A DNA stretch of 64,000 bases from Nemertoderma westbladi (Eukaryota; Animalia; Xenacoelomorpha), in contig JAUCBJ010006851.1 of assembly GCA_032718475.1 (NCBI GenBank), positions 15,985 to 79,984 on the forward strand, read 5' to 3'. The position numbers were made by a program, and so were the translations under genes. The notes beneath the pieces are model-generated. The model did no database searches and had not been told where the DNA came from. It saw nothing but the letters and a program-made list of their open reading frames with translations. Positions 9,311-56,361 of this stretch are shown here, piece after piece. How positions within the stretch are numbered: position 1 is the first letter of the stretch; every line of letters starts with the position of its first letter.

Positions 9311-9493
9311 TATCTGAACAATCTGCGCAGACTTACACGTCTTCTGCTCAATATTAACTTACATGTAAATAAAACCGACAGAAATAAGTAAAATCTCAAT
9401 AAAAAACCAGGGCGGCCTTTCCCTGATTAAGTACTAAGACCTACCGGTATACAATAATCAAAATCGAATAATACTAATGTACTTATACTGGAA

Positions 9494-9620
9494 GTACCGG
9501 TTAGGACAGTTGGGCCTACAGACCTACAGCAGTACCGATTCAGGCAGTTAGGCCTACGGACCTACAGCAGTACCGGTTCAAGCAGTTGGGCCTACAGACC
9601 TACAGCAGTACCGGTTCAGG
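9494..9620. repeat. ~39-bp tandem repeat (x3)
   Basis: Unit cagttrggcctacrgacctacagcagtaccgrttcarg is visible three times. Confidence 0.8.
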
Positions 9621-10449
9621 TTTACCGGTCGACCGGTACTTTCAACTTTATTGCTTACTGCAATAAAGAAAATAACTGTTATTGTACGCGCTTTTGAAGA
9701 CCTTTAGCAGTTTAACCTGCCAAAATTTATATGTCTTTTGGTTTATAAATAGACTTTAGCATATGACAAGTATTTAATACCAATAAACACATATTAGCCG
9801 AAGCCAGCCTAGTGCGCGTCCATTCACCCGCTGGATATACCCGGGAGACTGGATTCGGATGGGCTTAGATTTTTATTGCAGTGTAAGCTTACGGTATTAT
9901 TCGATTGATCGTTAATAAATAATCTCAGACGAATATTATTCACTTTCGGGAAATATTAACAGTTCCTTTAGGACGTGGCGCTCTATCTAGGTAAACAGAG
10001 ATATGACTTATACTAAACACAACGGTAAGACGGTAAGGCTTATGATTCACGTATGAGGCGCATTCTTTAGGAAATGCTTAGTTATCAGCCACAATCATGC
10101 ACACTACCGGTACCGCACAATACTGCACACCAATCTGCCGACCGTCAATGAATTTTATCATACATAAAGAGAACAGCAATTGCCTCATGTAGTGCCTATC
10201 TAATAGCATTAAATTCACTACAAACCACGATAATATAAGTCGCAATCGCTATATGTAACCTGTCTCTCTAACCTGTAGTGTATCAAGAAAATTGGGAAAT
10301 TTGGGTTATTTATCGATGTTCTCCAAGTAATAATATTCAACCAACTGATACAAATATTGACAGCAGTAAATAGCAGTATAATAATGTATGTTGCACTGAA
10401 CTGTATGCTGTAAGACTGAACTGATTGGGTTGATAACAGTTATACGTTC

Positions 10450-10851
10450 TATAATCTAAGCCTACTAATGTTTCTTCTAAAGTCTGAAATCAATTGACTC
10501 CAGAGCCGGTGTTCTTGGCCTAGATAGAAACAACACAACTCAAAACTAAAAAACAGTAAGACAGAACACTCCTAGCACGATCTGTAGAATATCTCCACGT
10601 CGACAGTAAAAATCGCCCTGATTGGCTGTTAAGCTGAACAAAGAACCATGTGTCCAACGGCCGTTTCCATGCCAGCAACCAGCTGTTAGATGTCGTAATC
10701 TGAATCATCAAGGCTACACTGTGCTAGAGGATTTGACGCATTGCGGGTTTTGTGCCTTGCCATGTCCGCCAAAGCACACATATAGAAGAATGACTTTTAT
10801 GTCCGTTAAAACACCTACAACGGTACTTGGCGGGCAAGGGGACTGATTATA
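10450..10851 (-). repeat. Putative 5' LTR of BEL-A
   Basis: Perfect 7-bp terminal inverted repeat TATAATC (10450-10456) / GATTATA (10845-10851); the same TATAATC junction occurs in BEL-D at about 56296; the partner LTR is outside the window, so the boundaries are unverified. Confidence 0.5.
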
Positions 10852-11580
10852 TCCGCAAAAGCTTTTACATCTCTTTTAATTTTCGAGTTATCGCTGTCTG
10901 TCCGTCTGTCTCGTTTTGGTCTGTCTGTTAGAAGACTGACATTAGCAATAAATTTACCGACCACGAAAACCCCCACAGAGAAATTTTTATCTATATTGTG
11001 CGAATTATTCTATTTTGACGGACAGACCGACCGACTGACAAACTGGCTCACAGACAGACATCAGATAGTCAGTTAGAAGACTAGATTTTCCAAAAAATTG
11101 AAAACTGACATCAGAAATATCAGTATCATCAGTATTATTTTGGTCTGGTATCCTTCCGCATAGGCAGACTTACTTTATCATATATTCTTTCATATTCACG
11201 CATAAATAATTGGAGGGAAGGTTTAAAATTTAAAGGCCATTATCGGAATTACATTTTTTCACACAAAAAACACTATCCTCCGCAATTTCATAACCTTTTT
11301 TTGTGATTTTTGATTTTTATGAAAGGAAATTTAATAAGCTTTAATAATTCTTCGGCCACTTTTTTTGATTTCAGAATATTTCCGCATTTTTTTAAAAAGA
11401 AAAACCATAAAAAACCGTAAATTTTTTTCAATTTTTAAAAAATTTGAATTTTTTTTTACAAAATTACCAATTATCAGATATAGAAAATAAAAATAAAAAA
11501 AGTGTCCGAAGAATATGATGAAATTTAACATGCTGGTTCTCAAAAATGTGGTATCGTGGTAATGTGGAATCTAAAAATGT
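10852..11580. repeat. Unclassified non-coding repeat (GTCT/GACAG microsatellite tracts), target of BEL-A and the foldback element
   Basis: ctgtctgtccgtctgtc and gacggacagaccgaccgactgac tracts typical of non-autonomous DNA/helitron-like repeats; no ORF. Confidence 0.35.
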
Positions 11581-15860: not shown

Positions 15861-16126
15861 TTAAGGCACTCCGCCTGCATCAAGTTCTTCATTAAGATTT
15901 CATTGCTGTACAATAGCCGGAATTGCAGATATTCCTCCGGCTTACTACCATTGAATTTGAAGGGCTCCACCAGTGGCTGCTCGATCCTAGTCGCGTCGAT
16001 GAGTGTTGCCATTCCCATCGCTTGTACTTCTAGCGCGCTCGATGGTAGAGATACAGACTCCCTTGCTGTTGGGTGTGGTTCACACTTCGGGCCCATCGAC
16101 TTTCCTTGCGTTGGATATATCATCGG

Positions 16127-16728
16127 TATCACGTTGGCTAAAAGAATCCTTTGTGAAGATTCTATAGCCAGGAAGGAAATAAGGAGGGCCGGTTGCGGTA
16201 CTCCAAGTATTTCTTCCCCTGGGCCACGTGTAAGCCTTGACTGGGCTGATAATTCTAGAGCTCCTTTTATAAGGATGTCCAAACCTCCCAAACAGACTCC
16301 AGGCTATCCCTGAACCTTAATATAAATACCCAAACATGCCAAACCCAATAGAGTTACCTGATTGCCAAAGTTACCTTGCTCGCTTGACCGCGAGTGAAGC
16401 CCCTCTCCACGGCGGAATAGAGTGACGGAAATATAAGTTGTAACCCACGATATAATAGAGAATGGACGACGGTCCCGGTGACCTGGTGGATTGTTCTAGG
16501 CGCTGGTGAGTAATGTTGTCTGTTATTGTAGGATTGGGAACAAATCCCATAAGAACTTTATGAATTTTCCCAGTCAGTAGTTAGCAGTACTGCAGTATGC
16601 CTACATCGGTAGGCTACTCTCTGTGTTGCAGGAGTAGTGCAGTCGTGTCCTGTCACTTCTGCTGTCTGCTATCTGATGGATACCGGAAGTGTCATTTGTC
16701 ATTTTACAGGCCACCAGGTGACGTCATA
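16127..16728 (-). repeat. BEL-B 3' LTR
   Basis: Direct repeat of 27530-28131 (about 14 substitutions and 2 indels by eye); termini TATCACGT...ACGTCATA. Confidence 0.95.
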
Positions 16729-18578
16729 CCGCTCCCTAAAAAAATATTTATAAATTATTTATAAACAAAAAGGAAACTGGTGGTACAATCAAATAGCATG
16801 TAATCCCTTCACCAATATGACACACGTAAATAATTATATTGGTAACACAATACGTTATTAATAATTGTTGTAAACTACTATATTTGTGACTATCACATAC
16901 TAAACTATTAATTATTTACGTAGTTGTAGTTAAGTATATATGGTGTATACATTTTGAGTTGGAACTCAAATTAATTAACTATCAGTAAGGGAAAATAAAC
17001 TAACATAGGCATTTAATTTACTTATTGCACCGTTATTACAACAACAACAAAAATTTCTAAAAACTTACGATTGAGTATGATTAACTCGAAATGAAATACT
17101 TAGTACTTGCTGGCTCCCATTTAGGCAAGGTTTCTCTAGGTAATGTTTGCTGAATATGCTGATCCAGTAAACACTATAGCCTGCGTTCTCGGGGGAGTTC
17201 GGAGGCGGCTTCAGTTCGCGCTCCTCCGCTCCAACTCCCTCTGTTTGCGTGGTGGCCGGCGTCCCTGGAGGGCGCTGGGCTTTGGGGATGGTGCGGGTCT
17301 GCGGGGGAATGACCTCGCAGACCATTATTAATTCACGGTGCACCATTTTTAATTGTTGTTAAATTTTATTGTCTTAATTGTTTTGTTCTGATTGGTGGTG
17401 GGATGCTGGTGCAGTTTTATATTTAATTTTGGTTTTATGGATATTATATATTTATGATGTAAACACTATTGCACTATATGTATAACTTAATATATATTCT
17501 TAGAATAATAACATGATTAATATAATGGACTTTCTGAATAAAACTATATTACCGCAAGTAAAGTTATCATATCAAAGAAATTATCAACAAACCAAGTATT
17601 AACAATATAAACATTTCAACGCCAAATTAATCAAACTTCTGAAATTCAAATAGACACCGTTTTCGGGGACTGACTCCTGAAGGTCATTCACCCAGTGTTT
17701 TTCCCGTCTGCAGGCAATTACCAAGGAAAGGTTGAGATAATTATTTGGTTCACCGGTAAGATAGATAACGAGTCGCCCATCACGTCACGCAGATCCGATC
17801 CGTCTAGGATATATAGGTCTAGCATCGGTCCAACGAAACATCTTTGTCCCAGGACGTCTGTGGTTCCGTAGTCTAGGTAAATAGCCGTTGCTGTGGGGAG
17901 TCAAATGGAGTATTCCAACGTTGGCGATAAGGCAATTAGTCCCTCACCCACCGTTCGATTCCCCCCAATAATAATAAACACATAGAGATAGCCTGGATTT
18001 TTCCTATATTATTATTATGTTATATAGTATCACACTGTTTCATAATCAAAATCAATCCAATCAGGCGATTACCTCTTAAAATGTAAAAGTAATCAAATTG
18101 GTGATAACATAAATTCACCAAACTGAAACCAAGAGGAAGAATAACTTCAGAGATTAATTATTTTTTAATTAACCAAACAGTTTTAGTTATAATAAATGTT
18201 ATTTTTATTTTTTAAACACTCCGACCCTCCTTCGGTCTAAAATGTATTTTATTAAGTCATTAAATTTTTCTAGAATTACTTTTGAAAGTTGGTCATTAAT
18301 TAAAAATTTTATTGTTAACTATAAATTCAACAAATCTCAATAAATTTAAATAAATTTAAATTTATTACCGGAATTATGTTTATATGTCTCTATGTATGTC
18401 ATATTTTGTTCTAATTCATGCGCTAGTTTCTTAGATCAGATAAATATGAACATCATACGATCTATTCATACTAAACATACAACGCATTATAATACACACA
18501 TTCTTTGCTATATTAAATCGGTTATCTGTATACAGTTTCAGTTAATAAGTAGAATCATTAAAGTTATTAACATGGCGT

Positions 18579-20015
18579 TTACGGTTTATGTTTGTCAACA
18601 GATTTCCGTTGGGTATTTGTAATATTACTAAGGATCCACGGCTGATTATGTTGAAGAGGCTGAAATTGACCATATATACCTGTCTTCTCTGAGTCTTGTT
18701 CAAGGAGGCATAATTTCTGTATCGGTCTTTCGAGAATACTCCCATTCTGCGTCTTCAACTTAGCGCTTCTGACTAAGCCATCGCCGCTGTAGTTAGGTTC
18801 TAAGACAGTAGCTGTAAGCCAATCCCGCCGTGGCCGTACAGGGTCATGAATTAAGACGATATCACCAATATTTAGATTTGGTCGTTGGCAAAACCACTTC
18901 GATCTTAGGCGTTGAGAAGGTAAATAGTCAATCAACCAATTGTTCCAGAATCGTTGAGTCAGGAGTTGAAGAACTTTCCAAGTGCGTCGGGAATGAAGAT
19001 CATTATCCTCCATTTCGGATATTGGTATCGTAATGGCTGGTTTAGAGAAGAGGAAATGTGCTGGAGTGAGAGCTTCAGCTGATTCAGAAGATTGCGAAAT
19101 ACGTGTTAATGGTCGGTTGTTCAAAACTAATTCGATCTGAGCCAACAATGTGCGCAACGCCTCATCATCCAAATACGTGCAAGTCTCATCCTCGGGCAAC
19201 AGTTTGTAGAAAGCTTGTTTGACACTCTGTACCAGCCTTTCATAAGTTTCCCCATACCAAGGAGCGTGGGGTGGAGTAAAGTACCAGTCTATGAGGTTTA
19301 TTTGATGATTATCAAGAAGCTCGTGTAGCGATTGCGTATTCCACTCATTGATATTCTTACGAAGCTCTTTCTCGGCTGCTACGAAGTTTCCTCCATTATC
19401 AGCGGTGATATGATGAGGTTGTCCGCGCCGTGCGATCAATCTGGACGATGCGGACAAAAACGAACCCATGTTAGCTTGATACAAAACGTCCAGATGGATC
19501 GCCCTTGTAGTCATACATACCGCCAATAGGCCCCATCGTTTGACAGTAGTTCTGGCGCGCTTAACTAATATCGGGCCAAACATATCCACTCCACAATTGG
19601 TAAATGCTGGCTCATATGCCGCCATCCGAACGTTGGGTAGATCTCCCATCTGTTGCTTCATCAGTGGTGAGTTGTATCTCCGGCAGTGAAGACAATTGCG
19701 CATAACATTCCGTAGATACTTCCAGGGTGAAACCAGAAAATAGTGTTGTCTCAAATGACTCAAGATATGGTCTCTTCCTGAGTGATTAAGTTCAAGGTGA
19801 GTGTCATGAAATAATTGTTCCAAGAGGAACGGTTCACGCAACATGATAGGATGTATAGTGTCATAGGACACTGGAGCCATTGTTAGGCGTGTTTGAACTC
19901 GAATATTCCCATTTGACATGATTGTGGCAACACGCTGAGGGGGAATAGGATTATTATGTTGATGTTTCAAAAAAAGTTCTGGATCTGCTATTCTTTGTGA
20001 GAGGCGAAGTCTCAT
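18579..20015 (-). pseudogene. BEL-B integrase
   Basis: HHCC (HLELNH...CLHC), GVDMFGP, ADNGGNF, YERLV and a DUF5641-like C-terminus (GDIVL, DGLVRSA, ERPIQKL). Confidence 0.92.
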
Positions 20016-20096
20016 TTGTAAACTCGTCCTTAGTTCTTCTAGTGTTAATGGACCAACAAATCTAAGAGGTTTCTCGGTCGTCTTGGGATTATTTTG

Positions 20097-22308
20097 TCAC
20101 CAACAATACCAATGTGCCATGCGATGGATGTAGCAAATATCTCGAATCGAGGCACGAAGACTTTGCTGACTGCTCAGAAGTCCTTTCATCCAAGGATGCA
20201 ATCCTTTGTCTAAGTTTGGAAATTGAATCTCTTTACATGGGAAGGATGACTCACTGGCACCTTTGGGAATTGGGGTAGGATCATCTTCAACATTTATTAT
20301 TATATTGGTTTCTCCTAAAATCAACCTAGATTTGGGGTGGTATACTCTATCGGGAACTATCTCCGCTCCCTTGGGGAGATTTAGATCTCGCAGTACATGA
20401 GGCCACTCATCTTCTGTCTCCCACAAGAAATATGGACCTTTCCACCATATGGAAGAATTGACTAATTCTTCTGCTGTTGAGCCACGACAGGCCAGATCAG
20501 CTGGATTAATGGTACCAGCTATATGACGCCATTGATATAGGAGTGATCGTTTTAATATTCGAGTCACCCGGTTTGTTATAAACACAGAGAGTTTATGTTT
20601 ACGGTTATGCAGGTATTGTAATACTATGGTAGCATCAGTCCAATAATATTGTTCTACCTTAAGAGTAAGTTCAGCTGTGATAATCTCAGCAAGTTCAGTT
20701 CCCAGCACAGCAGCTTGCAATTCTGCCTTAGGGGTTGATAGTTCCTGTTTAGGCATAATACGAGATTTTAAAGCAACAAAGGTTACTGAAAATATACCCT
20801 TCAACTCTCGTCTAAAATAGGCCGTTGCACCCATCCCATTATCACAAGCGTCAACAAAGACATGAAGTTGAAGTTGTTCGGTTGTTTGCAAGTGAGGAAA
20901 GTATGTTCTGGGAATAGTTAATTGTTCTATATTTTTAAGGTCCTTTTCCCACTTACTCCAGGCCTCAAACAGAAATTGGGGAATAGTATCATCCCAATCT
21001 AAATCTAAAAGCCAAGTTTTCTTAAGCAAGAACTTAGCCCTCATAATTACTGGCGCAACATATCCAAATGGGTCGAAGACCTTGTGCATTTTCGAAAGGC
21101 ATTGGCGTCGTGTTTTTGCTGGCACATTATCAATAAAGGCAACTGTGAAGTAGAACTCATCTTCTTGCATTCGCCAACGTAGTCCCAATGTTTTCATTAC
21201 TGGGAGCTGCTCTACATCTAAGTCTAGGGTAGGGGAGGCCCGTTCTTCTGGTGGAAATGTCTGTAGTAGTTCCTTGCTGTTGCTAGCGAATTTCACCAGT
21301 CGAAAGCCACCCCGGAGCAGGCAATCTTGAACACCATGAGCAATATCAATTAAGTTTCGACTGATTGGATGTGACTTAAGAACATCATCCATATAAAAAC
21401 TATTCTTTATTGTTTCAATTATAACCTTTTTGAAATCATTGGCATTGTCATCAGCTGTTGCATACACAATACTCTCAGCATTGCTAGGTGAGGATATTAC
21501 TCCAAAGGGTTGGCACTTCATCCAATATTGGCTTGGCTCACCTTCAAGCTCAGTTGTCGGCCACCAATAATATCGGAGGCTGTCTTGGTCCACTGTGAGG
21601 GCACGTACCTGTAGAAACATTGCTTCTATATCTGCTACGAAAGCTACATTAAACTCACGAAATCTAATAAGAATTCCTACCAAAGATTGTAATAAGTTTG
21701 GTCCAGGAAGTATCTCTGTATTGAGTGATTTACCTTTATATGTGGCATGACAGTCGAAAACAACTCGTACAGTGTTGGGTTTGTTTTCATGGGTTACAAA
21801 ATGATGCGGCATAAAATATGACCTGGGACCAAATTGTCGTTGGTCAGATGGAACCAATTCTGAGCAATCAATTTTAAGGTATTTATCCATTTGATGTTGA
21901 TACATATCTAAATATTTAGGGTTCTTCTTCAGCCTTTTTCTCATGTTCAGAGCTCTATTATATGCTAGGCTAGAATTGTTAATAAGCTGTGGAGGATCAT
22001 CCCGCCACAGCAGACCAGGTCTGATAATGTCCATTAGGCAAAAGTTTGCGCGTCCAATGCTGGATCTCCACAGCATGGAGGTCGTCTGGAGACATTGCTA
22101 ATTTATCCTCATTCACATTAGTGCTGTCATTCTCAAGCCATTGTTGCATGGCCAAATCAAGAGTCATATTATCCAAGGCTGAACATTCTTCCTTATTATG
22201 ATAATCATCGTGGGTTCTAGATGATTCACTATGAGTCACCAAGTGCATTAAGGTATCGTAAGTATCCTGAGTGGGCAGTTCAGTCGTGTCTCTACCTAAG
22301 GCTGCCAA
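20097..22308 (-). pseudogene. BEL-B RT-RNase H
   Basis: VRVVFDC, ADIEAMFLQV, FYMDD, FDPFG, LHVFVDA and NPADLACRG motifs; frameshift near 22020. Confidence 0.92.
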
Positions 22309-22443
22309 TTCCTGTTCTATGAATGTATCTTGTAGTCGACATACTGATTCATGAGTGAGTATTTCAATGTAATTTATACTCTCAGATTCTCTCTCTTTTA
22401 ATGTTCTCTCTGATGGTCCCGAACAATACCATCCAAGAGGTGT

Positions 22444-25400
22444 TCATGCCGCAAATGGCGAACTGTATTTGGATGACCCCACTCCCAAGAAAGCTGCCGG
22501 AATTGTTTCTAAAACGCGAAAGGCTTCAGGGCAGTTCTGCCCTATGAGCATGACAACCTTAGGATCTTCAGCCGTTGCTAGAGGAATCTGGTATTGTTTG
22601 GAAAAATCATCACTCAACCAGTCATGGAGAGTCCCAAGTGCGTTTTTTAAACCATTCATACATATAATTTTGATGTTCTCTGCCATTTCCCCTTCCACGT
22701 CATCCCTGGCTGGACTAAGTTTACCCTTTGCCACTACTGTAGGCATCTCTTGGTACCAGGCTATGGCCGTTAAGTGTAGGTTAGTTTCTTTGGTTACCCC
22801 AAACAACTGGTCGAAAATATCCCCATCTAGAAAGGTAGTCGAGCTACCCGTATCTACAAGAACATTAACAATTGTTGAACCCTTATCGCCATTTAGTCTC
22901 AAGGTCAAAACTGGAAATTCACGCACTGGACCACCTCTACGATTGAGTCTACAGGAAATTATGGCAGCATTATCGATAAAATTTGACTCATGTTCTGCAA
23001 ACTCAGTAACTCCATATTGATCACCAGCAGCATCTGAATCTGTCTCAGATTCTACTATTCTCATCGCAGCCTCTTCTCGTTTAGTTTCACGTGAGGTAAG
23101 TTCTTCTTTATGAAGGATAGTGTGGTGGGCTTCACCACAAATTTTACAACGATTTTTATTCTTACAATGGGACCGGAGGTGGAGGCTTGATAAACAGTTG
23201 TAGCAAAGTTTTTCACATTGACAAAAGGATCTTCTTTTCTCTAGATTCATCTTATTAAAGTCTTCACATTTAAACAAGTTATGGGTATCTCCACATTTAA
23301 TACATTTCAATTCACCTGTCCCTCTGGATACAGTTGGTTTGGGTGGGATATTTTGTTTAGAAGGTCGAGTGATAGCATTAAGAGCCTTGGATTGCTGATG
23401 TCTTCCTTTTGCTGGCTTATGCAATTTCGCCACTATCCGATTTAAGAACTCATCATCATCACTTGAGTCATCTGTTCTTACTGCATTTACCCTCGAAAAT
23501 CTTTCAATATCTTTATTAAGAATTGTGGTATTATTGGGCCTTGCAACAGGCATTAAAACAAGAATATCCACCTCTTCTTCCAAAAACTGGACAAAATGTT
23601 CAGCTTTGGCAATATTAGGATCATTCAATCGATGCTGGTGATGTAATTGTGCCTTTACCCATCGTCGATGAGTGGGTTCTGTTAACTTAGCTGCGAGATC
23701 GTTCAATATCTTAGTGTTATCTAGCTGAGGTCCAGCCCCGAGTTGATGCAACTGTTGGAAAGTCCATTTTACCTCATCTGCGAATTCAATTACCTTTTCA
23801 GGTTGGCTTACAGGTTCCATTTTCAAAAGTTTCTCCAATAATGATGCAATTATGGATTGCTCTCGACCATAACGTTTGTTCAAACCTTCCCAGGCCTTTA
23901 TGAATCCATCCTGAAGACCAACACAACTTTCTACCATCCTTAAAGGTGCATCTTCCACCATAGCCATCAAATAGTTCAAGTTTTCTTGATCCATCAAGTG
24001 GAATCCCAAAACTGCTGTCTCAAAGTGATGTCTGAAGGTTACCCAATCATCTGCAGCACCAGAAAATTTCTTTAACTTTATTTTCGGAAGATTTCTCTCA
24101 GCCGTAAGTCTATTCATAGCATGTGCTATGGTTGGTTCCATCGATGAAGTATTAATTCTACTGGACTGAAGCATCCCTATATCCCTCGATACCAAAGGAG
24201 GTGGACACCCTTCACCCAGTGGAGCAGAAGTTGAATTTGATCTATCAATATTATCCTGGTATGTATTATTTACAAGTTGACTTCTAGAAAGGTTATTGTG
24301 AGTTTGACCTCCTGGAGAGTTCATACTACCATTGGAAGTTAGAGTTTCATGAGGGGGCAGTTGGGCCGTATCTGCATTGAGCGCAACTTCTGCTTGGATC
24401 CTATCCACATGATCAAAGCAACTCTTCCGAAGGTCCTTTAACCGTATGTCCATGTTCTTGGCTAGCTGACTTATGTGCTGTCCCCAGTGCCCATGGGGTG
24501 GTTGTAAACCCTGTATTTCATTAATCTTCTGGGATAAACCCTGCAGACTCTGCTCCATTTCATATCTCCAATTCGAATATTGGTCTATTGGTGACCATCC
24601 CATTTTATTATTGTATATAGCATTTGTGTGTTTAGGAATGGTTCCGCCTATACTTGTAGAGTATTGCATGGATATTGGAGGTGGTACAGGTATTGATTGT
24701 ATCCTTGGATGTAAGATAGCCTTTGGTTCTCTCGAGGTTTGATACCTCAGTGAAGATAATTGCGGTCTATTTCCACTTCCAGGATTCTTCTGGAAATAGT
24801 GGGAGGATGGTGCCATCTCAGTGTCCTGCCGCTCATATCTAATCTCTGAGGTTACATGTTTTGGCTCAATTCTACCAGGTTTAGGAGTTCCTTTTGCCTC
24901 TTTCAAAGCCTCTGATTCTAGGAGAATTCTATGTTTTTCCGGTGGAATTTCGTCAGCTCGCCTCTTGTTAGGTACTGGTGGGCAAAACTCAACATGATGT
25001 GACAAGTCGGGTTGGGTGGTTACAACATTGACCTTCATTCTCTTTCTATCTTCTAGGTTTTTGTCTATCAAGTGATCCTCTTGATTTTCTTCCATAACCA
25101 ACCGATTCAAATCAGGTACCAGGGGTTGCTGTAAATATCGCTGCAAAGTCTCGGAACTGGGATTAATTGGAGATGAGCTGATAGGTCCTGTTGCAGCTGG
25201 TAGCAAAGACTGCCCTTCTTGTCCAATTGAAACAAAAGGGGCATCATCCAGGATGGTGTCATTTACTTCCTGCAGCTGGGACTGCAGACGGATAAATTTC
25301 TGTTGTTGATCTAGGGCATCATTCTGCAATTGAAACTCCATATCTTTCAGTTTCTTCTGTTCCGCTAACTCCTCAAATATATTATCTTGATGACGTTGTT

Positions 25401-26233
25401 CCGCAGCAACTCTTTCTTCAACCTCTCATTTCTTAGATTGGGCTATCCTTTCTTCCACAGCTTGTTGGTTGGCTCTCTTCTGGGAGCTCAGTATTATGTT
25501 ATCTCTCAGTTGTTGTGCTTCTGTTTGCTTTCGTTGAGTGATCAATTCTTCCTGTTGTTGATATTCCTTACGGCGACGATCCCTATGTTTCTTTGCTATT
25601 TCAAAGCGTTGCATCCGGTCCTCCCCTTTTGAAGAGGCAACACTGCTTTCGCTTAATGTGCAGGTCGGGGGTGAAAATAGAGGCATCATTACTCCTGCTG
25701 CTCCACACCATTTTTGGTATAGACTAGATATTTTTTGGTATCTGCCATCGTGCTCACGTGCACGCATCTGTAATCTATGATCAAGAGTGTCCAATTGTCG
25801 GGCCTTGGCAACGAGATGTATCCACTCCAAATGAGACATAAGGCGTTGTCGTTTTGCTTCTAATTCAACATTCCATGTGTATACTTCGTCTGGACGGTGA
25901 GCCTGGAAGCCTGGGTGACTCGGGGGTGAGTTTCGCTTCCAATGTGTTTAGATACTGTGTCGACGCTGATAAATATCCGGAGCTTATGTGGTCTAAACGT
26001 TCACAAGAGACAGTGGGGTCAATACCCTCCAATTTCAACTGCATACAAGCTGATAAGTAGGAGTCTGTGGCTCTCTCACTAAGAGGTCTCGTTGTTACAG
26101 CTAATAGCTGGTGTTCTTCTGATTTGGTTTCATCACTTTCTTGCTGTGGGGGAACTACTGTTAAGTCAGAAGCTGATGGCGAATTGTTCGGATTTTCCCC
26201 ATCCGTGGTATACTGTCTATTATCATCAGACAT
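22444..26233 (-). pseudogene. BEL-B gag-protease (fragments 25865-26233, 25426-25839, 22444-25341)
   Basis: KKFSGAADDWVTF gag motif; CIKCGDTH/CYNCLSSLH/CKICGEAHH knuckles; VLVDTGS protease; broken by stops and frameshifts. Confidence 0.88.
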
Positions 26234-27529
26234 GTTTAAAATTGATATATGAAATATTCAACAAAGGCCTAATAAAGCCAAATGGTCTGAATGTCTTAAA
26301 AAGAAATAGGCTTACTACTACTTTTACTGAACCGAATATAAATGTTGGGTACTCTATCTGTACCTATTGGGAGCAGTAGGGAAGCGTAATATGATATCCC
26401 TTTTTCACAAAAGATTGTATTCAATCGTGGTCAGTGGATAGCCTAAAAGATTAAAATTGGCTGAAACAGACAGGTAGGTACCGATACTGTGTTTATATTT
26501 TAAACTTAACTGCAGAACTGCAATGAAAAACTAGTTACTTACAATTAGGCAAACACAAATATATTTACAGAATTAATAGGATTTATTGCTAGACTGAAGC
26601 AATTAATTACTCATAAGACGAGGGTGAATAATGTCTATATTGTAAATATTGAAGTAGGGCCTACCTAGATACACAATTAAATAGGCCTATGCACTATGGC
26701 GGCTTGGGCTGTTGGGCAATGTATTAAATACTAAATACATATAGGCTAGCTATATACTGATATTTATATAGATACGAACCATATATTGGTAGATACTAGA
26801 CAGTCTCTCAGTGCCTATACTCAGATATCGGTACTTTATATATATAATAACGAAATAACGTCTGAGTTGAGTATATGTAGGACGTTATTACCTTTAATAT
26901 TATTATATAATAATATTAATATACACACTTTAATAGACAATAATAGCCTATCAAATACTGGTACTGAAATTGGTTAACTCGGTCTATCAACCAGTTATGA
27001 GTTCTGGAGTTAACTAGGTTATATACCGTACAGATATATAGATATATACCGGTATATATAGCAGTATAGGCTGATAGGCAAAACTCCTGATACCGGTATA
27101 CCACTAAATCTGAACAGAAGCAGAGAAATGTCGCAATATAAAAGGCTGTTTGCAGGTTTGGCCAATTAAATGTCAGAACGCGGTTTGACATTGACAGTTT
27201 GATTCAGCCGGTAAACATATAGGTTTGTGCCAAAAATTAAATTAAATTTGGCGGAAAAACAATAATAATGACTTGGATTGATTATAATTTTTCCAGGGCA
27301 AATTTTCAACCGGTTGCGGAAGTGAACGTCTGTCCTACCCAGCGCATTTACACTGCGGTTGATGACCAACTGACAAAAGACACTCGATATGCGAGGTAAT
27401 CTAAAGTAAATTGATCGCAGACTACAGAGTCTTTGGTGAAGAGCTGCCGTAGTCCACTAATCACCAAGGCTGCTGAGCCAAGGAAATTGTGAAGAACTGC
27501 GATTTTATTTTAAATTCTAAAGTTCTTAT

Positions 27530-28131
27530 TATCACGTTGGCTAAAAGAATCCTTTGTGAAGATTCTATAGCCGGGAAGGAAATAAGGAGGGCTGGTTGCA
27601 GTACTCCAAGTATTTCTTCCCCTGGGCCACGTGTAAGCCTTGACTGGGCTGATAATTCTAGAGCTCCTTTTATAAGGATGTCCAAACCTCTCAAACAGAC
27701 TCCAGGCTCTCCCTGCACCTTAATATAAATACCCAAACTGCCAAACCCAATAGAGTTACCTGATTGCCAAAGTTACCTTGCTCGCTTGACCGCGAGTAAA
27801 GCCCCTCCCCACGGTGGAATAGAGTGACGGAAATATAAGTTGTAAACCCACGATATAATAGAGAATGGACGACGGTCCCGGTGACCTGGTGGATTATTCT
27901 AGGCACTGGTGAGTAATGTTGTCTGTTATTGTAGGATTGGGAACATATCCCATAAGAACTTTATGAATTTTCCCAGTCAGTAGTTAGCAGTACAGCAGTA
28001 TGCCTACATCGGTAGGCTACTCTCTGTGTTGCAGGAGTAGTGCAGTCGTGTCCTGTCACTTCTGCTGTCTGCTATCTGATGGATACCGGAAGTGTCATTT
28101 GTCATTTTACAGGCCACCAGGTGACATCATA
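27530..28131 (-). repeat. BEL-B 5' LTR
   Basis: Direct repeat of 16127-16728. Confidence 0.95.
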
Positions 28132-28710
28132 ATCAAGGGTAACTGTCCCCTCCATATCTCCATGTCGCATGACTTATTTGGGTCTGAGAGGTTTGGGGTT
28201 TTTGTTCTTGGCTGCGTGTATTGCTGATACTGCAATGGGGGAATGTCACCCTGCCCCCCCTCCCCCCCACCGGTGTTATGTTTGGTACTGGGGTTGATGT
28301 TATCATGTTGGGGCCCATGCACCTATCGGCAATACCTCCCCCCTCCCCTGGGTATATATTATATCCCTGCATGTTATAGTCTATCTTTCCCAGCATGGCC
28401 TATAGTATGTGCAGTAAGGCCTACAGTATGTCCTGCAGTCTGCCTGTGTCCTTCCAGACCGAAGTTTAATCTTCTCGAATATTCCGAGAAGTCCTCCCTG
28501 TGACTACCATATTCTCGATCGGCAGCTATGTTCCGACGGGAAGTTTCTCTCCAGTCCCCTCTCCTGTTTTCATCCTCGTACCGGTACACTCTGCACCCCT
28601 CCCTCGGTGTGTGGTATATTTTACCAGGTTGTGTTTATCCGGTGTGACAGCAATCTCCTGGAGTACGACCCCACCGGTTCTCTTTCTCCATCTCGACTAC
28701 TGATGGTTCT

Positions 28711-34269: not shown

Positions 34270-34800
34270 ATCTGACTGTTGAATATTAGAGAAATTTCAG
34301 GAAATTAAATATCCGAAAAAATTTGAAAAATCCAAAAAGAAAAAATTTTGCAAAAATGTGCAAAACTTTTGCACGCAAATCAGCCCAAATCTGTAGTTAT
34401 CGAATACTGACAGACTGGAATACCGCCTGACTGCTGAATGTGAATTGAATAGGTACCGGTAGTTATAATTAGGCTAGCGGGCGTCGCTGCCTACCCCTCA
34501 CGGCCCCCGGACAGCGCAAGGTCCTCAGCGCCGATGTAGGCTACCGTCGTCGCTGTGTTTTGCGCCAACGTAGTAGCTACACAACGACAACGATAACCAG
34601 CGCGAGTCACTCCACTGTCCGTCCCAAGGGCTTAGTTTAGAAGAGTACTGGAGTAGGTACACCACCAGAAGTATAGGTAGGTAGCTAGGCCTAGATCAGA
34701 ATCAGTAGAGGCGACCGGTAGAATAATATTGAATTATCTAACCTGCTGAATGCACTGGAATGTCCACCATTTGAATAGGGTTGTAGGAACATCAAGTACA

Positions 34801-34811
34801 TCACTGCGCCA
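34801..34811 (-). promoter_or_regulatory. Gypsy canonical tRNA primer-binding site TGGCGCAGTGA (tRNA-Ser-like)
   Basis: Begins with TGG immediately after the 5' LTR; tRNA identity inferred from typical tRNA-Ser 3' ends. Confidence 0.75.
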
Positions 34812-37978: not shown

Positions 37979-39717
37979 TTATCGCTTTGTGGATCGAGCC
38001 CTGCCGCGTCCTCGAAAACTGCGCACAGGTGACTTTGCTCGCGATATGGGACTTGTGGGGCGAGTCACTGGTTTCGTTTGGACGTTGAGAGACGGTGCGA
38101 CTATTTCCTCGCAAATTCGTCTATTTGGCATCCCAAAACCTCGACCGATTCCTCGTGACCGATCAGTTGTCACTACAGTTGGTAGAACGTCTGGGAACGC
38201 GCGAGAAGCGGACGACGCAGACCCAAGAGCAGCTTGCGCCCCCTTCTGATCAGCTGGTGTATGTCCCGATCCTCCTATTGGTTCTCTAGGAAGCGATACC
38301 GTATCCCGAGTAATTCGAATAGTCGGCTCAACTCCCTTGCGTTCTTCTATATTAATAATTTTCTTTAATTGTTGGCCCACTTTCTGGACCCGTATGATCC
38401 TACCCTGTCCGTCCTCCCGAGGGTGACGTGCAGACGGCGCAACCGGAGTGGCTGGTATGTCGGTCGCCTCTAGTATCTCCTCTTCCTCGAATACGCTCGC
38501 TCGTATACGTTTATGGTAAAACGCGGCTCGGTACGCCCATGCGACGGTTAACCAAGCTCCTTTATTCCGTTTTTCAGTTCGGAAACGATCGAATTCACCA
38601 TACGTGATGCGATTAACGACTTTCTGAAAATTCCACGTGTTTTTGTTATCCGGGTGAATCTGTAGTAGATACTCGCACACTACTCGGAATCCACTGTCGT
38701 GGGGCAAAATATCGACTACCTCGATAAGTTCGTCATATTGGGGCATAGCGGAGATATATCCTTCCGACATCATCGTTTGGGGATTTACCGCCCAAAATCC
38801 AAGATGCGCTCTCATCGGAAACCGTCTTCTTTGTGCCGATACATGTTCGTCGGCTAAATCTTCCCACTCATCAAATAATTTCCTCACGAGTTTTACAGAT
38901 TCGTGTTCATAAGGTATGTCTCTTAGTTGGCATTCAGATGCTCGATGTCCCTTTATATTACAATAAGTACATTGAGCCATAAATCTCCAGCAAGTATAAA
39001 AGGTATGAGACCCTTGATCCCCACACCATCCACAGATTAGCTGAGTCGTAGTAATGTGCTTTCCACTGCACTTGGTCAAATGATGTCCAGCGACGCCACA
39101 TTTACCACACATCGTATTGGCAGGGTACCACACTCGTTCGTATATAAGATCTCCAATCGGTCGAGCGCTTCCTCCCACACTATAATCGTAATCATCTGGA
39201 TCTATGGGTTGGTAGGTTTCTGAGGGTTGTATACAAACTATAGCATCTGTTGCTTCAAGTTGTCGAATCTCCGTCTGAGATTTCTTCGGGAGGTTCCTTT
39301 CTATCTCAAGAAGTTCCTCTAAAGGATCGTCAGTGATCGTAGAAGTTACTTCGAAATCATCACCAAGGTGACCGATAGGCGCGCGCGTCTGCCGTGATTC
39401 ATCCGTAATCTCCACGATACGTTCTCCTTCATAGGGTAACAATGTAAACATAGATGGTCTTTCGATAAGAGATCCCGCACAGCGAAGATACACGTCTCGA
39501 AATATACTAAATCCTGCTCGAGTAAAGGCATTACACTGAGCGTCGGAGTTGTAGAAGGGTTGTCATATTTAGTCTTTGCGAGTTTCGCTGTACTTTCTGA
39601 TAATTCCTTTATACCAAATATGGTGTAGTCCTTAGCTCCAAATCGTTCGAATGGCGCTGCTGCTTCCTCTTGGATATCATATCCCCATCTCGGCTCTCCA
39701 TGTATCCCCTTCTCCAT
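37979..39717 (-). CDS. BEL-C accessory ORF(s): 123-aa ORF overlapping a >500-aa CCHC zinc-knuckle, RG-rich protein
   Basis: CGKCGVAGHHLTKC, CGWCGDQGSHTFYTC, CTYCNIKGHRASEC; tail RSRGIGRGFG...RSFRGRGRARSTKR; lies between pol and the 3' LTR; long frame open from about 39562. Confidence 0.75.
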
Positions 39718-40380: not shown

Positions 40381-43300
40381 TTATTTACTAGTATTAGGTG
40401 GAGATTTGTAGTCTCCAGACTCGTTACGAGTCTCTTCAAGAAGTACGAGACGTTGAGTCGGTCTGTCAACTGTACGACCGTCAATTGTCCGTACCGTCAC
40501 AGTTCTTGTCACTCCATCCATAGATGGATGTGTGTCTAAAATTACACCTGTTATCCAGAAGCGTCTTTTTAGATTCACTTCTGCTAACAGCACGTGATCT
40601 CCCGGCTTTAATGCGCGGGTGTTATTGTACCATGTTGTTCTGGCAGAAATAGAGGGCAAATAATGGTTTTGCCATATTTCCCAGAATTTGTTAGCCAGTA
40701 GTTGCGTGATTTTCCACGCTTTTCTACCGTAGCTATCGCTTTCTATTGGAATAGAAATAGGCGTCAATGTGGTCGGTGCCTGCATAAGCAGGTGTGCCGG
40801 TGTTAAAGCAAACTGAGATTGTTTGTCATCGGGTACTAATACTATTGGTCTAGTATTTAGTAGTATTGCCTCGATTTCAACAAACAGTGTTGTCAGTTGG
40901 TCGTCTGTCAATATGTGGTTTACTGGAATGACCTTTGCCATTGCCGTTTTGATAGATCTAATCAGTCTCTCCCAGACTCCGCCTCTCCATGGACTATCTG
41001 GAGGATTAAACTTCCAAACAATCTTGTGAGGTTGTAGTTCGTTTGAGATTTGATCATGATCTAATTTCTTAAAGGCTCTAGCAATCTCATTTCGAGCACC
41101 AACAAAGTTTGTCCCTTGGTCTGAGTACAAGCATTTCACTAGTCCACGTCTAGCGATAAATTGCCGCAATGCTAGTATAAACGCGTTGGTGGAAAGATCC
41201 ATCACACGTTCAATATGAACTGCCCTACTGGACATACATGTGAAAATCAGTCCCCAGCGTTTTACTAGTATACGTCCACGTTTCGTATGTATGGGACCAA
41301 AGCAATCAATTCCAGTCTCTGTAAAAGGTGGTCTGAATGCTTGAAGTCGTGCTTGTGGAAGTTCACTCATTTCTTGGGTACCTATTCTAGAATGTACCTT
41401 TTTACAAATAATACACGTACGTGTCACTGAACTTAACGCTTTACTGGGTCTAATTAATACAAATCTTGTACGTAAGTAGGAAAGACAGTGGTGTCTTCCA
41501 GCGTGTTTCAGATGTAAATGTGCGTCCAGTATCATTGCACGTTGTAGTTCGTGATGTTGCGGTATTATTATTGGGTATCTAAAGTTTGTGTTAAAGTCAA
41601 TGTTTTGAAGCCGAGATTTATGACAAATTAAGCCATTATAAATAATCGGACTCCAACTCAGTATTGGTGACGACTTGATTGGTTGACCTTGATTTATAGA
41701 TGTGAATTCGCGTGCGAAATATCGCAGTTGGTAATGGCAAATTAATTTAATCTCACACCTGTCAATCTCAGCCAATGTAAGTCGACGTGTAAAGTCGCGT
41801 TTGCCTTTAACGTATTGTACAAAACGTACAATCCACGCTAATTTTCGGCAAGCGTTTGTCCAAGAGTCTGTTAAGTTTACAATACGGTCGACGTAAGTAT
41901 TTGTGACGTCATCAGGTAAGTCAATGGAGATTTTGGAAGGTTTTGATTTACTAGAAGGGCCCACGGGTCCGCCGGTAGGTATTCCCTTGTTGACTGTTGA
42001 TCCGTCCGGGTCTACAAGTAATTTGTCCTTCTTCGTCTTCTTACCTTGATTGTCAGTACTTTGTAAGTCGATCGTTAATGGTGGTTTGAACTCTATGGGG
42101 TCACTGGGTTTCGGTAAACTTAATTTTCTGCCGACATTAATCCCAGGTTTCACCATAGGTTGCAAGTTTGGTATGTCTCTTGAGCGCAGAGTAACACCTG
42201 TATTTACATTAGCGTAGGTACTACCCACATCTGTAATACATGAGGTTTCACCGTGCTTGTGGTTGCTCAAGTGTGTCAAAATTGGTAGTTTGTCAATACA
42301 AGGCCGCTCCAATAGGGAAACTGCGGCTTCACTATTTGTCGGTATGTTACTAGTGTCTGGTAGAACATTGTGTGACATGTCTGGTAAAATGTTTCGCGGA
42401 ACATCCGGCGAAATATCTAGTGACGTGTCTGGCAAAACGTCTGGTTGACCGTCTAGTAACGTGTCTGGCGATACGTCTGGTAACGTATCTGGTTGTTTGT
42501 CAATAGAAGGCCGCTCCAATAGGGAAACTGCGGCTTTACTATTTGTCAATATGTTACTAGCGTCTGGTAGAACATTTTGTGACATGTCTGGTAAAATGTC
42601 TGGTTGGCTGTCTAGTAACGTGTCTGGTTGACCGTCTGGCGATATGTCTGGTGTAGAAAGGCTCGCAAGTCTTCCTCTCTTGACCTTTGAAGTTATATCC
42701 TTCCATTTCGCCTTCGGTTTCTTCTTGAGTTTAGCCGCCAACGTCTTTTTCTTTGCCTTCCCCTTTTTTGGTTTCTTGATTTCGGCGTCCTTAGGGATGG
42801 TGTTAGACTTGTTGTCGTATAACGGTGGCCAATCTTGTGTCGATTTCTGCAAGAATTGGGGTCCGTGTTGCCAAAATTCTTTGTTTTCCGGTTTACAGAA
42901 TTCCTCAGGCATCATTCCTCGCGATGCAATATCGGCTGGGTTTTGTGGTCCGGGACAATGTCGCCAATCTTCTTTTATTGAACGGTCTAGAATTTCTGCG
43001 CGACGGTTAGCTACGAATGTCTTGAATTCAAGTGTGTCGTTGTTTATGTAAAATAAAACCAACGTCGCGTCAGTCCAATAAAATATCTGTAAACTTGACT
43101 GTAGTTCTGTCTGTATAAGGTTCACGATGGTGGTTGACAGTGTTGCGGCTTGTAGCTCAGCTCGTGGTGTCGTCATATACTTAGTAGGCATTGTTTTTGC
43201 CTTAGAAGTAATGAGCGAAACATCGAATTCTTCTGAGTCTACTTGTCTGCGCAAGTACGCTGCCACACCAAAACCGTTGTCACTGGCGTCAGAAAAACAA

Positions 43301-49209: not shown

Positions 49210-51499
49210 TTCGGTAGTTGTAAGTCAAGTAAAGTGAGTGTCAAAGTATCAAACTTACCGTTTTTTATCTAAACGGTACTAATTACAGTCATATAAAATT
49301 AGCCTACCGGCCGATTTTATAGCAGATGGATAAAATTAGCCTAGACGGCCAATTTTACAGCAAATAAATGTCACGGAATAAGTATATAATAAAATTAGCC
49401 TAGCGGCCAATTTTATAACAAATAAATTGGATAACGATATGCGTTATCAAAAGGTAAATTAAATACAATAATACGGACTAATTCAGCAATGAACAAAGAA
49501 ATCATACGGAATGCATAAATACTTGAGACAGTGGAACCCACAATAATTTTAACTAATACGGTAATGCCTAACTTATTTATGCAACTTTTCAAACTCACCC
49601 ACTCCAATTATTCTCCAGAAAAACAGATTCCCAGATACAAACCGAACGTGAACCTTTCCGTTTCCAGCGTTGCGGACGAAGCGCGATTTTCCCAACCAAA
49701 GTTGTTGAGTTATCTATCTCCCAAACTTGCTAAACACGGTCTTGCTCCCGTTACAGTCTAGAAATGAGTTCTGAATCCTGAAAAACAAAAGAGTTAGGTC
49801 AGTAGGTTTTACTTTACGAAATTTTGTACCGGTACAATATGGTATTTAAACCCTTTTTTAAACACCGGTATTCAATTCCAAAAATAATTTTACACGCGGT
49901 TCAAATCAAATTTTATTTCAAAATATTAGCACTTAGCTAATCAAATATAAATTTTTACCTCAAAATACAAAATTTTCAAATAACTTTAGTCCTACCGAAC
50001 CGTAGTTCAGTAAAACACATTCCTACTATTCGAAGAGACGGTAACAATACCTGCAATATCCTACTGTAAAGTTTGTGAATCAAATCATAAATCCGACCTT
50101 CTCACCAAAACAGTAAACTCTAAGTAAGCGAATATATTGCAGTATCGATCTCTTATAACCGGTGAGGCAGAAAACAGTCTACGAGCAGACAAACTTCGAT
50201 AAAACAAAATCCCGCGCAGCGAATCCTAAAATCAGGCTGACTCACTGACGGACTAAAGGGCTCGTATACTTTGCCGCGGTGTGATTTATATGGTTGGGCG
50301 AAAGGGACGCTAGCTAGGTACAGAGGCAGAGATTTGGAGATGTCTAACTAGCGGGCAAAGCACAGTACGGACAAAAGTTAATTTTATATATTTTGAGGTG
50401 TAAATAATTTCTAACGCGCGTGTTAATTCTGAACGGTCAAAGCAGTTTTGCTCCTTCACATATATAATTACTGGGTACGGTGTGCATTTTACGAATATTC
50501 TAATTTTGTAACTTGTAGGTCCAATACTCACGAATGATAAGGTTCCTTCCCCTCTTGCGTATTTCCAGGACTCAAATTCAGGCATAAGGTTAATGCTACG
50601 CCCAGAATTCGGCAATTTTAATTTACCAGGCCCCTAATACTAAGAAGAAATGTGTTAGTTTACTACAGTAGGCGTACGGTTACAAATAGCTATCCTGGCG
50701 TCCTATCTAGAATTTTAGTCACCTAGGTAGGCTGGGTAACTTCCTATCAAGACGTTGGCGGGGACACGGTAGATGTTAGTATATCCCTAATAGCCTCAAT
50801 TTATTTTCGCCTAGCCGTAAACTGCCCTACCGCCTGAACGGTACAATCCCAATTCAGGTGAAACACAGCAACCCTCCTAGCCTACAAGTTCTAATGCAAT
50901 GGACACCGTTGCACTACAAATAGTCACAGACGCACCTGTACTTAGCAAGAGTTAGGCGTACAGTTTGCTGCACCCTACCAATGTGTATTCTTTGTACCGG
51001 TGTGCCCACGTCCTATCTGCGTACTAGTATCTCTGCCTGCTCTCTCCCCCCCGTAGGAATGTGAAGGTCTACTGTGGTTTTTTCCTGAATTAAGACAGTA
51101 CAGTCCCTAAGATGTAATTTTAGGCTCACAGCGTGTCACTACTTCTACCTTTTGATCTTTGGTCTTACGCTTAGGTAGCAAGGCGTCGAACGCTGTCTAA
51201 CCTTTCAGGCGATGGGCGAATAACTGAGATGATATTGCGGGTTGTCTCTTGTCTACATTCCCGTGATGTTCCCGTTCATTGCTACGGCCCGATCTCTAGC
51301 CGGCCATCCTGTTCTTAAAGGTGTTCACCGTAGTGAATCATGATGAAAAGAAAAGGCAGGTAGCGGTATTTCTGAATTTATTGCAGATAATAATACAAAA
51401 TGTAATCTGAAAACTAATGACAGAATAAACAAATATCAGATAACTCAGAATAATTGTGTAAGTGAAGAGTGAAAATTAGATAACTAATGAACAAATCGC

Positions 51500-53271: not shown

Positions 53272-56200
53272 TTGATGTTCTTCCACCGCGATCAATACTC
53301 TAGTGAGTACGGCTCCAGGAAGAATTAGAAGTGGATCTGGATAAACCGCTTCTGTCATCCTTGCTCCGATCTCGGGTGTCAACTCTACAGTGTCTGAACT
53401 ACTGGAGTTATCGGGCCACTGAGAAATAAGTTCTCGGGTCGGGTGCTGCTGCTGTTTAACAGCTGCCTCTTGGTGCCACTTGACTTGAGCCCTAGTGCCT
53501 ATGATAGATCTATGGTGCTTTACTAGCCTAGGGTCTGATACTACTACTGTAGGGATGACCTTTCTTACAGTAGGACTTGGACTTACAGGGGACTTGGACT
53601 TCGGTCTCAGATGTTCTATACTCTTTTCTGAGTCACAGACTGTTCTTTCTAGAAGACTATCTGACAGTGTTTGCTTTGTGTCAGCCATGATTTATTTTAC
53701 AGTTGAATGCCTACTACTATGACGACAGTTAAAGCAAGTCTAGTAATTCAGTATCAACTATAAGCCTAGTAATTAATTACCGATACCGTTACTCAGTGTA
53801 ACATGATATATATAATATATTAAAATACCGGTATACTTATAGTATATATATAAGTATTATTGCAGACTATAATTAGTCACAAAATACCGGTATATAATTT
53901 CAGCCTAAATTTATATAAATAAATATAATAAGCCTACCGTAAATACCGGTAATGTTAATTATTTTATGATAACTGACTTTCTGAATTTTAGGGTTACTTC
54001 CCCTTTACTTGTTACTGTTATTAAGCAGTAGTCCAACTGATATTACGACCTAATTGATGTATAACAGGCCTACTATTTTATATATCGGTTTGAGTTAATT
54101 TATAATATATTATGTACCCGTACAAGGGTTTTTGACAATATTTGAAATAAATGTTATTATTTCTAGATAAGGAGTCACTACACAGAATCTGAACGCTCTC
54201 AGTGGAGTGCTACTTGTTGGACACTAAAATGAATAATTCTACTTTACTAAGTTACTTGTCACTACAAATTACTTACAATTACAGTTTGAGATTACAATCT
54301 CTAATAATAAACACTAAAAAGTTACACGTACAATTTATTAGGGTAATTTTACAAGAAATCTACAAACCAGCTTAACAAGGAGTTCGAATTTCTGGTTCTT
54401 ACAAACTGACAGGAAACTACGGTATTTGAAAACAATAAAGCAGTAGTAAGTAAATTGCGTTGTCCAGATAAGAAAATACCACCATCTGACGACTTATAGT
54501 CTTAGCTCTATAAGTACTACGTTATGTACCCGGAGTGTCCTTACCTAGAGGTTAATTACTGCAGCCAACCAGAGCTAACGTGCCTATTAACCACGTTACA
54601 ACACAAATATACTGCCTACACTAAATTACTTTTGGAAAGCACTGTACACTAAACCCTAAATTAGGTACAAGTACTTATACAACAAATAACCAGCAGTTAA
54701 ATATACTTGAACAGCCAAAAGAACCACGGTATCTGCTGGAGTGACCGGAGCACAAAATCACCAGTCTTTACCTACGCCAAGCAGCCCTGATGTAGTACCG
54801 GGGTTAATTTAACTATAACGGTATGTATAACAAGCACAATTACTGTAGGAATAACCTTGGGGAGTTGGTGGTTGCGAATACTCGCATAGACTCTGAATAA
54901 TAAATATTACGCTACCCGTGCAGACTGTACAAACAAAATACAGACCAAATGCTGGCAGACTACTGGCAAGCCTAAATAAACTACAGTATATGCAGACTCC
55001 AAAATGGTTAGTTAGTAGGCGTTCTAACCGAGTAGTACGACTTATTCTTTCGGGGGGATTTACCTTACAACACTGGATGCCCCCACCTTCCTAACTAGCA
55101 CTTTATCGGACAGACACTCTACACACACTGCAATCGCTTCAGACCTAACAACAGTCAGACAACAATCCGGCCTACAAATTATTTATACAATCTGAGCAGG
55201 CTTACACGCCTTCTGCTCAATATTACACTTACAGATAAATAAAACTGACAGAAATAAGTAAACCATACAAAGGAATAAGGGGTGATCAATCCCTAATCCC
55301 CTAACAGCCTACAATATACAATATTTCACAATCGAAATAATACTAGTACCAGCAAGTACCGGTTCGGGTGGTTGGGCAGTTAGACCTACAGTTTACCGTC
55401 CGACCGGTATATTCTAATTTATTGCCTACGTGCAATCAAGAAATTATAAAAACTATTCATGTTCTTACCAGAACAATAGACAAAATATATTTATTGCCTA
55501 CTGTGCAATAAAGAACAAAATCTATTATTGTTCGCGCTTTTAGACCTTTAGCAGTTTAACCTGCCAATTTTAGTTGTCTTCTTGTTTATAAATCGACTTT
55601 AGCCTAGATCAATGATTTAATGTACTGAAGTTACATCCGCCGAAGCCAGTCTGTGCGCGATCATTCACCCACAGTTAAGGGAGACTGGATTCGGGTGCTT
55701 TGAAAGTTATTGCAGTGCAGACCTACTGTATTATTGATTGATCGTTACTATATAATCTCTGACAATATATTTACTTTCGGGGAAATATTAACAGTTCCTT
55801 TAGGACGTGGCGCTTTAAGTATAAAAACAGAGTTATGACTTATACTAATCACAACTAGATGGCCATAGAGTTTCGTAAATAGCGCATTGTTTAGGAGATG
55901 CTTTATTATCTGTCACACTACTTCACACGACTTCACACTACTTCACACTGATCTGCCAACCGTCACTGAATTTGATCATATATAAGGAGAATTACAAATG
56001 ACACAAGTAGGGATTATGAAATAGCATTTGATTCACCCAAAACCACTATAATGTAAGTCGCAATGCTACCGGTAACCTGTTCCTCTCACCTTCAGTAATC
56101 AAGAAGATTGGGGGTTTTGTGATTATTCATCGGTATTCTCCAAATATATCAGCAATATACATCAATATAACAACAATTAATAACAGAAGTAAAATAATGC

Positions 56201-56361
56201 GGTGAACAGTCAGTATGTGTTTTAGTGCTCCAGGTTCGTGGTTGGTCAGTTAAGATAGTTCTTCAGTGTTGCTTCAGATAATAGATTTACGTTCTTATAA
56301 TCAAAGCCATCAGATGTTTAGGCCAAAGTCTGAAACTTCCAAAATCAGAAGTACAGAAGAT
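53272..56361 (-). mobile_element. BEL-D: 5' portion of a BEL-A-family element (gag start, leader, LTR start)
   Basis: MADTKQTLSDSL...IAVEEHQ is homologous to BEL-A MSDTRQNLSDSL...IAVEEHQ; the 2.7-kb leader is colinear with 7443-10500; interrupted by Copia at 56362. Confidence 0.88.

Follow-up and report, generated by a model that had tools for sequence, protein, structure and literature searches.

Primer-binding sites complementary to their own LTRs suggest Tf1-like self-priming in BEL/Pao retroelements of Nemertoderma westbladi

BEL/Pao retrotransposons are described as primed by a host tRNA: the ICTV account of the Belpaoviridae gives them an 18-nt primer-binding site (PBS) for tRNA-Arg or tRNA-Gly, while calling their replication "poorly understood" and assuming tRNA priming (PMC8742986). 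The DNA analysed here, a 64,000-nucleotide stretch of the Nemertoderma westbladi genome (the window), raises the question of whether some of these elements are primed by their own RNA. The original prediction had observed that the 12 nt following the 5' LTR of one element, BEL-B, are exactly complementary to a segment inside that LTR, that 6 further pairs form past a 1-nt bulge, and that the pairing ends exactly at the LTR boundary. All of this holds (Table 1). It had also pointed out that a neighbour, BEL-C, pairs in the same way with a different sequence, and the two LTRs are indeed dissimilar, giving no blastn match at E<=1.

The animal DNA of the window is dense in LTR retroelements, all with their coding strands on the minus strand. 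Pfam domains identify three BEL/Pao elements (BEL-A, BEL-B, and BEL-C), one Gypsy, and one Copia. DUF1759 and Peptidase_A17, which mark a BEL/Pao-type Gag-Pol, were found in all three, and DUF5641 and Integrase_H2C2 in BEL-B and BEL-C; the proteins nearest to the RT-RNase H region of BEL-B belong to BEL/Pao elements of corals, molluscs, and fish (~35-41% identity). BEL-B and BEL-C also have the LTRs, polypurine tract, and target-site duplication of the group (TACAA/TACAA in BEL-C). The window elements thus share with the Belpaoviridae the LTRs, a gag-pol with BEL/Pao Pfam markers, the polypurine tract, and the 5-bp target duplication, but they differ from the published description (PMC8742986) in having no 18-nt tRNA PBS and, in BEL-B and BEL-C, in their TA..TA LTR ends. 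Judged by their proteins, this departure leaves them in BEL/Pao. A Ty3/gypsy chromovirus Pol, as membership of Tf1/sushi would demand, was not found in the BEL copies, which carry BEL/Pao domains and homologues. Aragorn and Rfam made no calls within the window. Two other features were noted: a 365-aa open reading frame without Pfam match adjoins the Copia (61024-62121, plus strand), and large inverted, foldback-like arrays of 15/17-nt units occupy 11460-13480.

Table 1. Features of the BEL/Pao elements and of the Gypsy control in the window (all on the minus strand)
Feature	Position	Strand	Basis or remark
BEL-A ORFs	1145-7448	-	Pfam
BEL-A 5' LTR, TG..CA ends	9683..10869	-	inferred from contig ends and depth edge; 3' LTR beyond window
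BEL-A PBS ATAACAGTTAT	9672..9682	-	9/10,000 shuffles
BEL-A putative self-primer ATAACTGTTAT	10433..10443	-	
BEL-A2, truncated relative of BEL-A	about 53000-56360	-	homology to BEL-A
BEL-A2 PBS ATAATAGATTT	55518..55528	-	LTR end by homology to BEL-A
BEL-A2 putative self-primer AAATCTATTAT	56278..56288	-	3 changes vs BEL-A, each compensated in PBS
BEL-B gag-pol, fragmented in present copy	18579..25947	-	DUF1759, Peptidase_A17, Integrase_H2C2, DUF5641
BEL-B 5' LTR, 602 bp, non-canonical TAT..ATA ends	27530..28131	-	self-blast to 3' LTR; empty-site joints
BEL-B 3' LTR, primer copy 16549-16560 unchanged	16127..16728	-	self-blast
BEL-B PBS ATAAGAACTTTA, spacer-less after LTR, no TGG	27518..27529	-	
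BEL-B putative self-primer TAAAGTTCTTAT, LTR nt 169-180, complement of PBS	27952..27963	-	0/20,000 shuffles
BEL-B 6-nt pairing extension beyond 1-nt bulge, PBS side	27512..27517	-	
BEL-B 6-bp extension, LTR side	27965..27970	-	
BEL-B polypurine tract AGGGAGCGG, abuts 3' LTR	16729..16737	-	
BEL-B target-site duplication, 5' side TTGAT	28132..28136	-	3' side 16122-16126 = CCGAT, 3/5 alike
BEL-C ORFs	40381-49224	-	Pfam
BEL-C 5' LTR	51932-50027	-	
BEL-C PBS GTAGGAATGTG, directly after 5' LTR	50016..50026	-	3/20,000 shuffles
BEL-C putative self-primer, LTR nt 870-880	51053..51063	-	
Gypsy TGG-type (tRNA-type) site, control	34794..34811	-	3 nt at offset 0, no LTR complement

The position of the match depends on the LTR boundary. 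Logan contigs (runs X1-X3) contain the empty site, in which 16126 is joined to 28137; the 12,010 nt skipped equal the element plus its 5-bp target duplication, so the ends of BEL-B are fixed independently. Its two LTRs are 97.3% identical by self-blast and run from TATGA to GTGATA. In 20,000 dinucleotide shuffles an anchored match of 12 nt never arose, and 10 of the 125,546 window 12-mers outside LTRs occur in the BEL-B LTR (8e-5), consistent with the chance of about 4e-5 originally estimated; composition-preserving shuffles, named at the outset as a possible refutation, seldom match. Contigs from X5 and X3 also join 16764 to 26904 with 34 other letters between (X5 depth 1435), which may represent a BEL-B derivative of high copy number with an internal deletion, and BEL-B is itself inserted in a further high-depth repeat.

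An exact match of 11-12 bp at offset 0 is present in all four BEL copies of the window. That of BEL-C is 11 nt long, and those of BEL-A and BEL-A2, also of 11 nt, go beyond the original prediction, as do the intron-split primers of the relatives described below. None of the four has a TGG at the LTR end or an 18-nt host-tRNA PBS; instead, at least 10 nt after the 5' LTR complement the LTR interior. The start of the BEL-A LTR (10869) comes from a depth edge and contig ends and its end near 9683 from loose ends in X5 (2 records), so that this end is based on few contigs and the TG..CA convention, and that of BEL-A2 on homology to BEL-A. An end at 9475, predicted beforehand from a 13-nt inverted match (9474/9906), was abandoned when the contig layout put it at ~9683. 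BEL-A and BEL-A2 are 72% identical over the aligned region and carry their matches at homologous places, where three compensatory double changes in 11 bp separate them (p about 2e-4). Primer and PBS thus covary, with 3 of 3 changes compensated. A hairpin, TTTATTGC..GCAATAAA, lies right after the PBS in both copies (9670-9645 in BEL-A, just after 55518 in BEL-A2). The summed contig depth over 9250-10869 is far above that of BEL-B, which suggests that the BEL-A family is very abundant.

Metagenomes supplied relatives of these elements. Of 543 confirmed matches, the best 80 were retained and gave 78 loci in 53 clusters, the hosts being fewer than the loci since many loci have accession prefixes in common; 75 pattern matches in viral contigs included no relative. 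Thirty of the 53 clusters offered no LTR that could be used; L026, L032, L041, L043, L047, L053, and L076 belong here, their repeats failing to define an LTR end. The 23 testable families from these best 80 matches divide into 15 clear and two weak splice-junction cases, three with a contiguous complement, one of tRNA type, and two blanks. In the junction type, again among these matches, the complement forms only once a GT-AG intron inside the LTR is removed.

For 15 of the families the LTR end was set by the repeat, and only GT and AG were required of introns. Their contiguous complement is mostly 6-9 nt long and starts right after a U-rich..YAG acceptor, and nine of the 15 have junction complements of 10-15 nt (null 0-5 of 300 each). 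GTRAG donors appeared in 8 of 11 junction families although only GT was demanded. Two junction complements are weak (L066, null 8/300; L007, null 17/300), two families have contiguous 10-mers (L075, null 1/300; L077, null 11/300), and neither the contiguous nor the junction search found a complement in L039 or in L024, a TGG-type BEL. In eight further families the LTR end was not set, so all CA ends were searched with consensus-like donors required; six gave junction complements of 11-15 nt (null 0/40 in five, 1/40 in one), one a contiguous 12-mer (null 1/10), and one was blank. The relatives listed with ready-made contiguous primers are L075, L077, and L060. The same search for an intron-split primer in the window LTRs returned only shorter spliced alternatives at null level (BEL-B 121/300, BEL-C 79/100, BEL-A 9/100, BEL-A2 173/300). 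Together with the BEL-A/BEL-A2 compensations, the 18 clear and two weak cases among the 23 testable families (from the best 80 of 543 matches) support the family-level covariation, and the conserved mechanism, that had been proposed from BEL-B and BEL-C, and do so more strongly than those two elements could. The original prediction would have been undermined by the same pairing in tRNA-primed BEL elements; L024, the sole such control, has none.

Comparison of 23 primers, four from the window and 19 from the loci (omitting L066 as degraded, L024 as tRNA type, and L039 and L023 as without match), defines what is common to them. The modal length is 11, and a purine followed by T opens the PBS in 22 of the 23 (GT 16, AT 6, AG 1), the offset being 0 in the window elements and, in the loci, chosen by match length between 0 and 6. 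The distance from primer to LTR end is 422-1026 nt in the window elements, where primers sit at 28-46% of long LTRs, versus 62-278 nt in the relatives. The GGG said to follow the primer is present in BEL-B and BEL-C, but it does not stand as conserved geometry: only 3 of the 23 primers have it, BEL-A and BEL-A2 having C, and a conserved cut signal of this sequence is ruled out. No shared promoter motif was seen above the primers. TATA-like words lie at LTR nt 458 in BEL-B, at nt 423 and 1643 in BEL-C, and 5-6 nt above the primer in BEL-A and BEL-A2.

This arrangement resembles that of the chromovirus Tf1. There the primer has been proven to consist of the first 11 nt of the element's own RNA, released by an RNase H cut (PMC7175516); the Tf1 PBS opens with ATAAC and is copied to the end of the cDNA (PMC11042837). 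Self-priming has been reported in Tf1/sushi, and in Tcn1 and the TAR lineage of Copia it is predicted; the published in-silico threshold asks for 10 bp or more that begin 0-5 bp past the LTR (PMC6317226), and the window matches fall within it. As in the Ty3/gypsy chromoviruses Tf1/Tf2/Tj1, Tf1/sushi, and Tcn1, the PBS in the window complements a segment of about 11 nt in the element's own 5' LTR, and it begins with AT as in Tf1 (ATAAC in BEL-A, ATAAT in BEL-A2, ATAAG in BEL-B). The window elements differ from Tf1 in their superfamily, given by the BEL/Pao domains, in the long distance from primer to LTR end, and in that their primer is a predicted one; the primer is split by an intron in most BEL relatives among the best 80 of 543 matches, and the accessible Tf1 texts report no such split. 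The TAR lineage (Houba, Osr-1) passes the same in-silico threshold but consists of plant Ty1/copia elements, with no intron-split primer reported in the portion of the literature available. The accessible parts of the Sinbad paper (PMC554778) and of a BEL/Pao survey (PMC3118150) returned no mention of PBS or tRNA by term search, and those of PMC13524379, PMC3601003, PMC8220671, and PMC12440569 add nothing on BEL priming. No description of a self-primed or splice-primed BEL/Pao was found in the openly accessible literature searched; subscription papers, Repbase reports, and supplements, which lay outside the search, may mention one.

The offset-0 matches in four of four copies, the compensated changes between BEL-A and BEL-A2, the absence of TGG, the blank controls, and the junctions of the relatives all support self-priming, which in one form or another is very likely. 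Probably, BEL-B and the three other BEL/Pao copies start reverse transcription from their own RNA in a Tf1-like, 5'-end version. A transcript would start at or just above the primer segment of the LTR and fold back; the RNA would be cut 3' of that segment, as RNase H does in Tf1, and the freed 3'-OH could then prime strong-stop DNA. The polarity suits this minus-strand synthesis from the LTR end, as the 3' base of the primer pairs with the first base past the LTR. Plus-strand synthesis would later copy the primer into a new PBS, which would explain why the two drift jointly as pure Watson-Crick pairs with no G-U. For the majority of related families, formation of this primer is predicted to depend on prior splicing of an intron in the LTR.

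Against a primer at the RNA 5' end count the long distances to the LTR end, the TATA-like words elsewhere, the lack of a common promoter motif, and, in BEL-A and BEL-A2, a mean predicted helix probability of <=0.36 at every RNA start tried. Self-priming might instead rely on an internal primer, released by cleavage or provided in trans, whether from a separate LTR transcript that is short or spliced or from the LTR copy at the 3' end, a version that we consider unlikely. It would suit primers placed at 28-46% of long LTRs with TATA/Inr-like words at other places, and also the spliced relatives, in which only 4-7 paired nt fall in exon 1, short for a first exon, so that a longer 5' tail is plausible. 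Inheritance of the intron moreover requires that the 3' LTR copy keep it, which would be easier with a separate spliced primer RNA. What speaks against it is the 5' edge of the match, sharp at 11 nt in BEL-A, BEL-A2, and BEL-C, and the predicted folding. Folding of the leader, as the original prediction had called for, gives the 18-bp BEL-B helix in both MFE and centroid structures of 27970-27440 (z -3.5). Long-range folds carry little weight as evidence, but in BEL-B and BEL-C the predicted pair probability is about 0.9 for RNA starts 0-7 nt upstream of the primer and collapses to <=0.14 from 30 nt upward.

Retroviral leaders have U5-leader stems. The complement could likewise be a structural stem between LTR and leader, serving packaging, dimerisation, or translation, while the true primer is a host RNA or tRNA fragment. 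The BEL-B pairing continues beyond its bulge as a structural helix would, but several observations make this explanation improbable: the helix always starts no more than 6 nt from the LTR end, the window matches consist of 11-12 Watson-Crick pairs with zero G-U, no other TGG site is present, both tRNA-type controls (the Gypsy and L024) have no complement, and the four PBSs differ while each matches its own LTR, which is impossible for one host RNA. Chance, or a functionless by-product of inverted template switching, is hardly credible and already largely refuted: these AT-rich regions do contain inverted matches of 11-13 nt that are not anchored, as at 9474/9906, but anchored ones arise in 0/20,000, 3/20,000, and 9/10,000 shuffles, and the BEL-A/BEL-A2 compensations and the relatives' splice-junction complements with consensus donors speak against chance as well.

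The two primer types were placed on a quickly computed IQ-TREE phylogeny (77 rows, long branches). BEL-A, BEL-B, and BEL-C form one clade (SH-aLRT 100) and hence have one origin. BEL-B, put forward as an independent replicate of BEL-C, is thus independent in sequence but not in descent, being a diverged sibling. Contiguous primers require four changes on the tree, each of them forced by starred branches, while the sister of L075 is the spliced L059 (support 99); both facts suggest repeated intron loss in the lineages with contiguous primers. The window clade is placed among spliced groups with SH-aLRT values of only 83 and 92 on long branches, and its primers possibly became ready-made after such a loss. 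The best reading of these sequence comparisons is Tf1-like self-priming across a wide BEL/Pao clade, with the window elements as its intron-less form. A fuller scenario, in which a clade reaching from marine invertebrates to fish dropped tRNA priming, the ancestral primer was built by host splicing of an LTR intron that was then lost several times (L075, L077, L060, and BEL-A/B/C), and BEL/Pao became the third self-priming LTR superfamily by a new route, is one we offer tentatively, at somewhat less than even confidence.

If self-priming is confirmed, a large share of BEL/Pao self-primes and Tf1-type priming reaches a third superfamily by convergence; in most relatives reverse transcription would include a splicing step, which would tie replication to the spliceosome. 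Annotation tools that demand a tRNA PBS or TG..CA ends would miss such elements or misplace their boundaries.

Further features of the LTRs were recorded. In BEL-B, two donor-like sites (nt 356 and nt 373) and one good acceptor (nt 567) lie downstream of the primer (27776/27759 to 27565, minus strand) and may delimit an mRNA intron separate from it. Nearly all differences between the two BEL-C LTRs fall in a single cluster that includes a deletion at LTR nt 1677-1704 (~50230-50260 versus the 3' LTR). A tRNA-like stretch at 51808-51733 (minus strand), with its counterpart in the 3' LTR, contains what we take by eye to be A and B boxes of Pol III; neither Aragorn nor Rfam makes a call at this place. 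After pol, in the position of an env-like gene, BEL-C has a second open reading frame of 527 aa without Pfam match (37979-39562, minus strand). The TAT..ATA LTRs of BEL-B (28131/27530) and BEL-C (51932/50027) have no spacer at PBS or polypurine tract, and TG..TA ends are found in the window Gypsy (34812) and in L057 (L057:7402).
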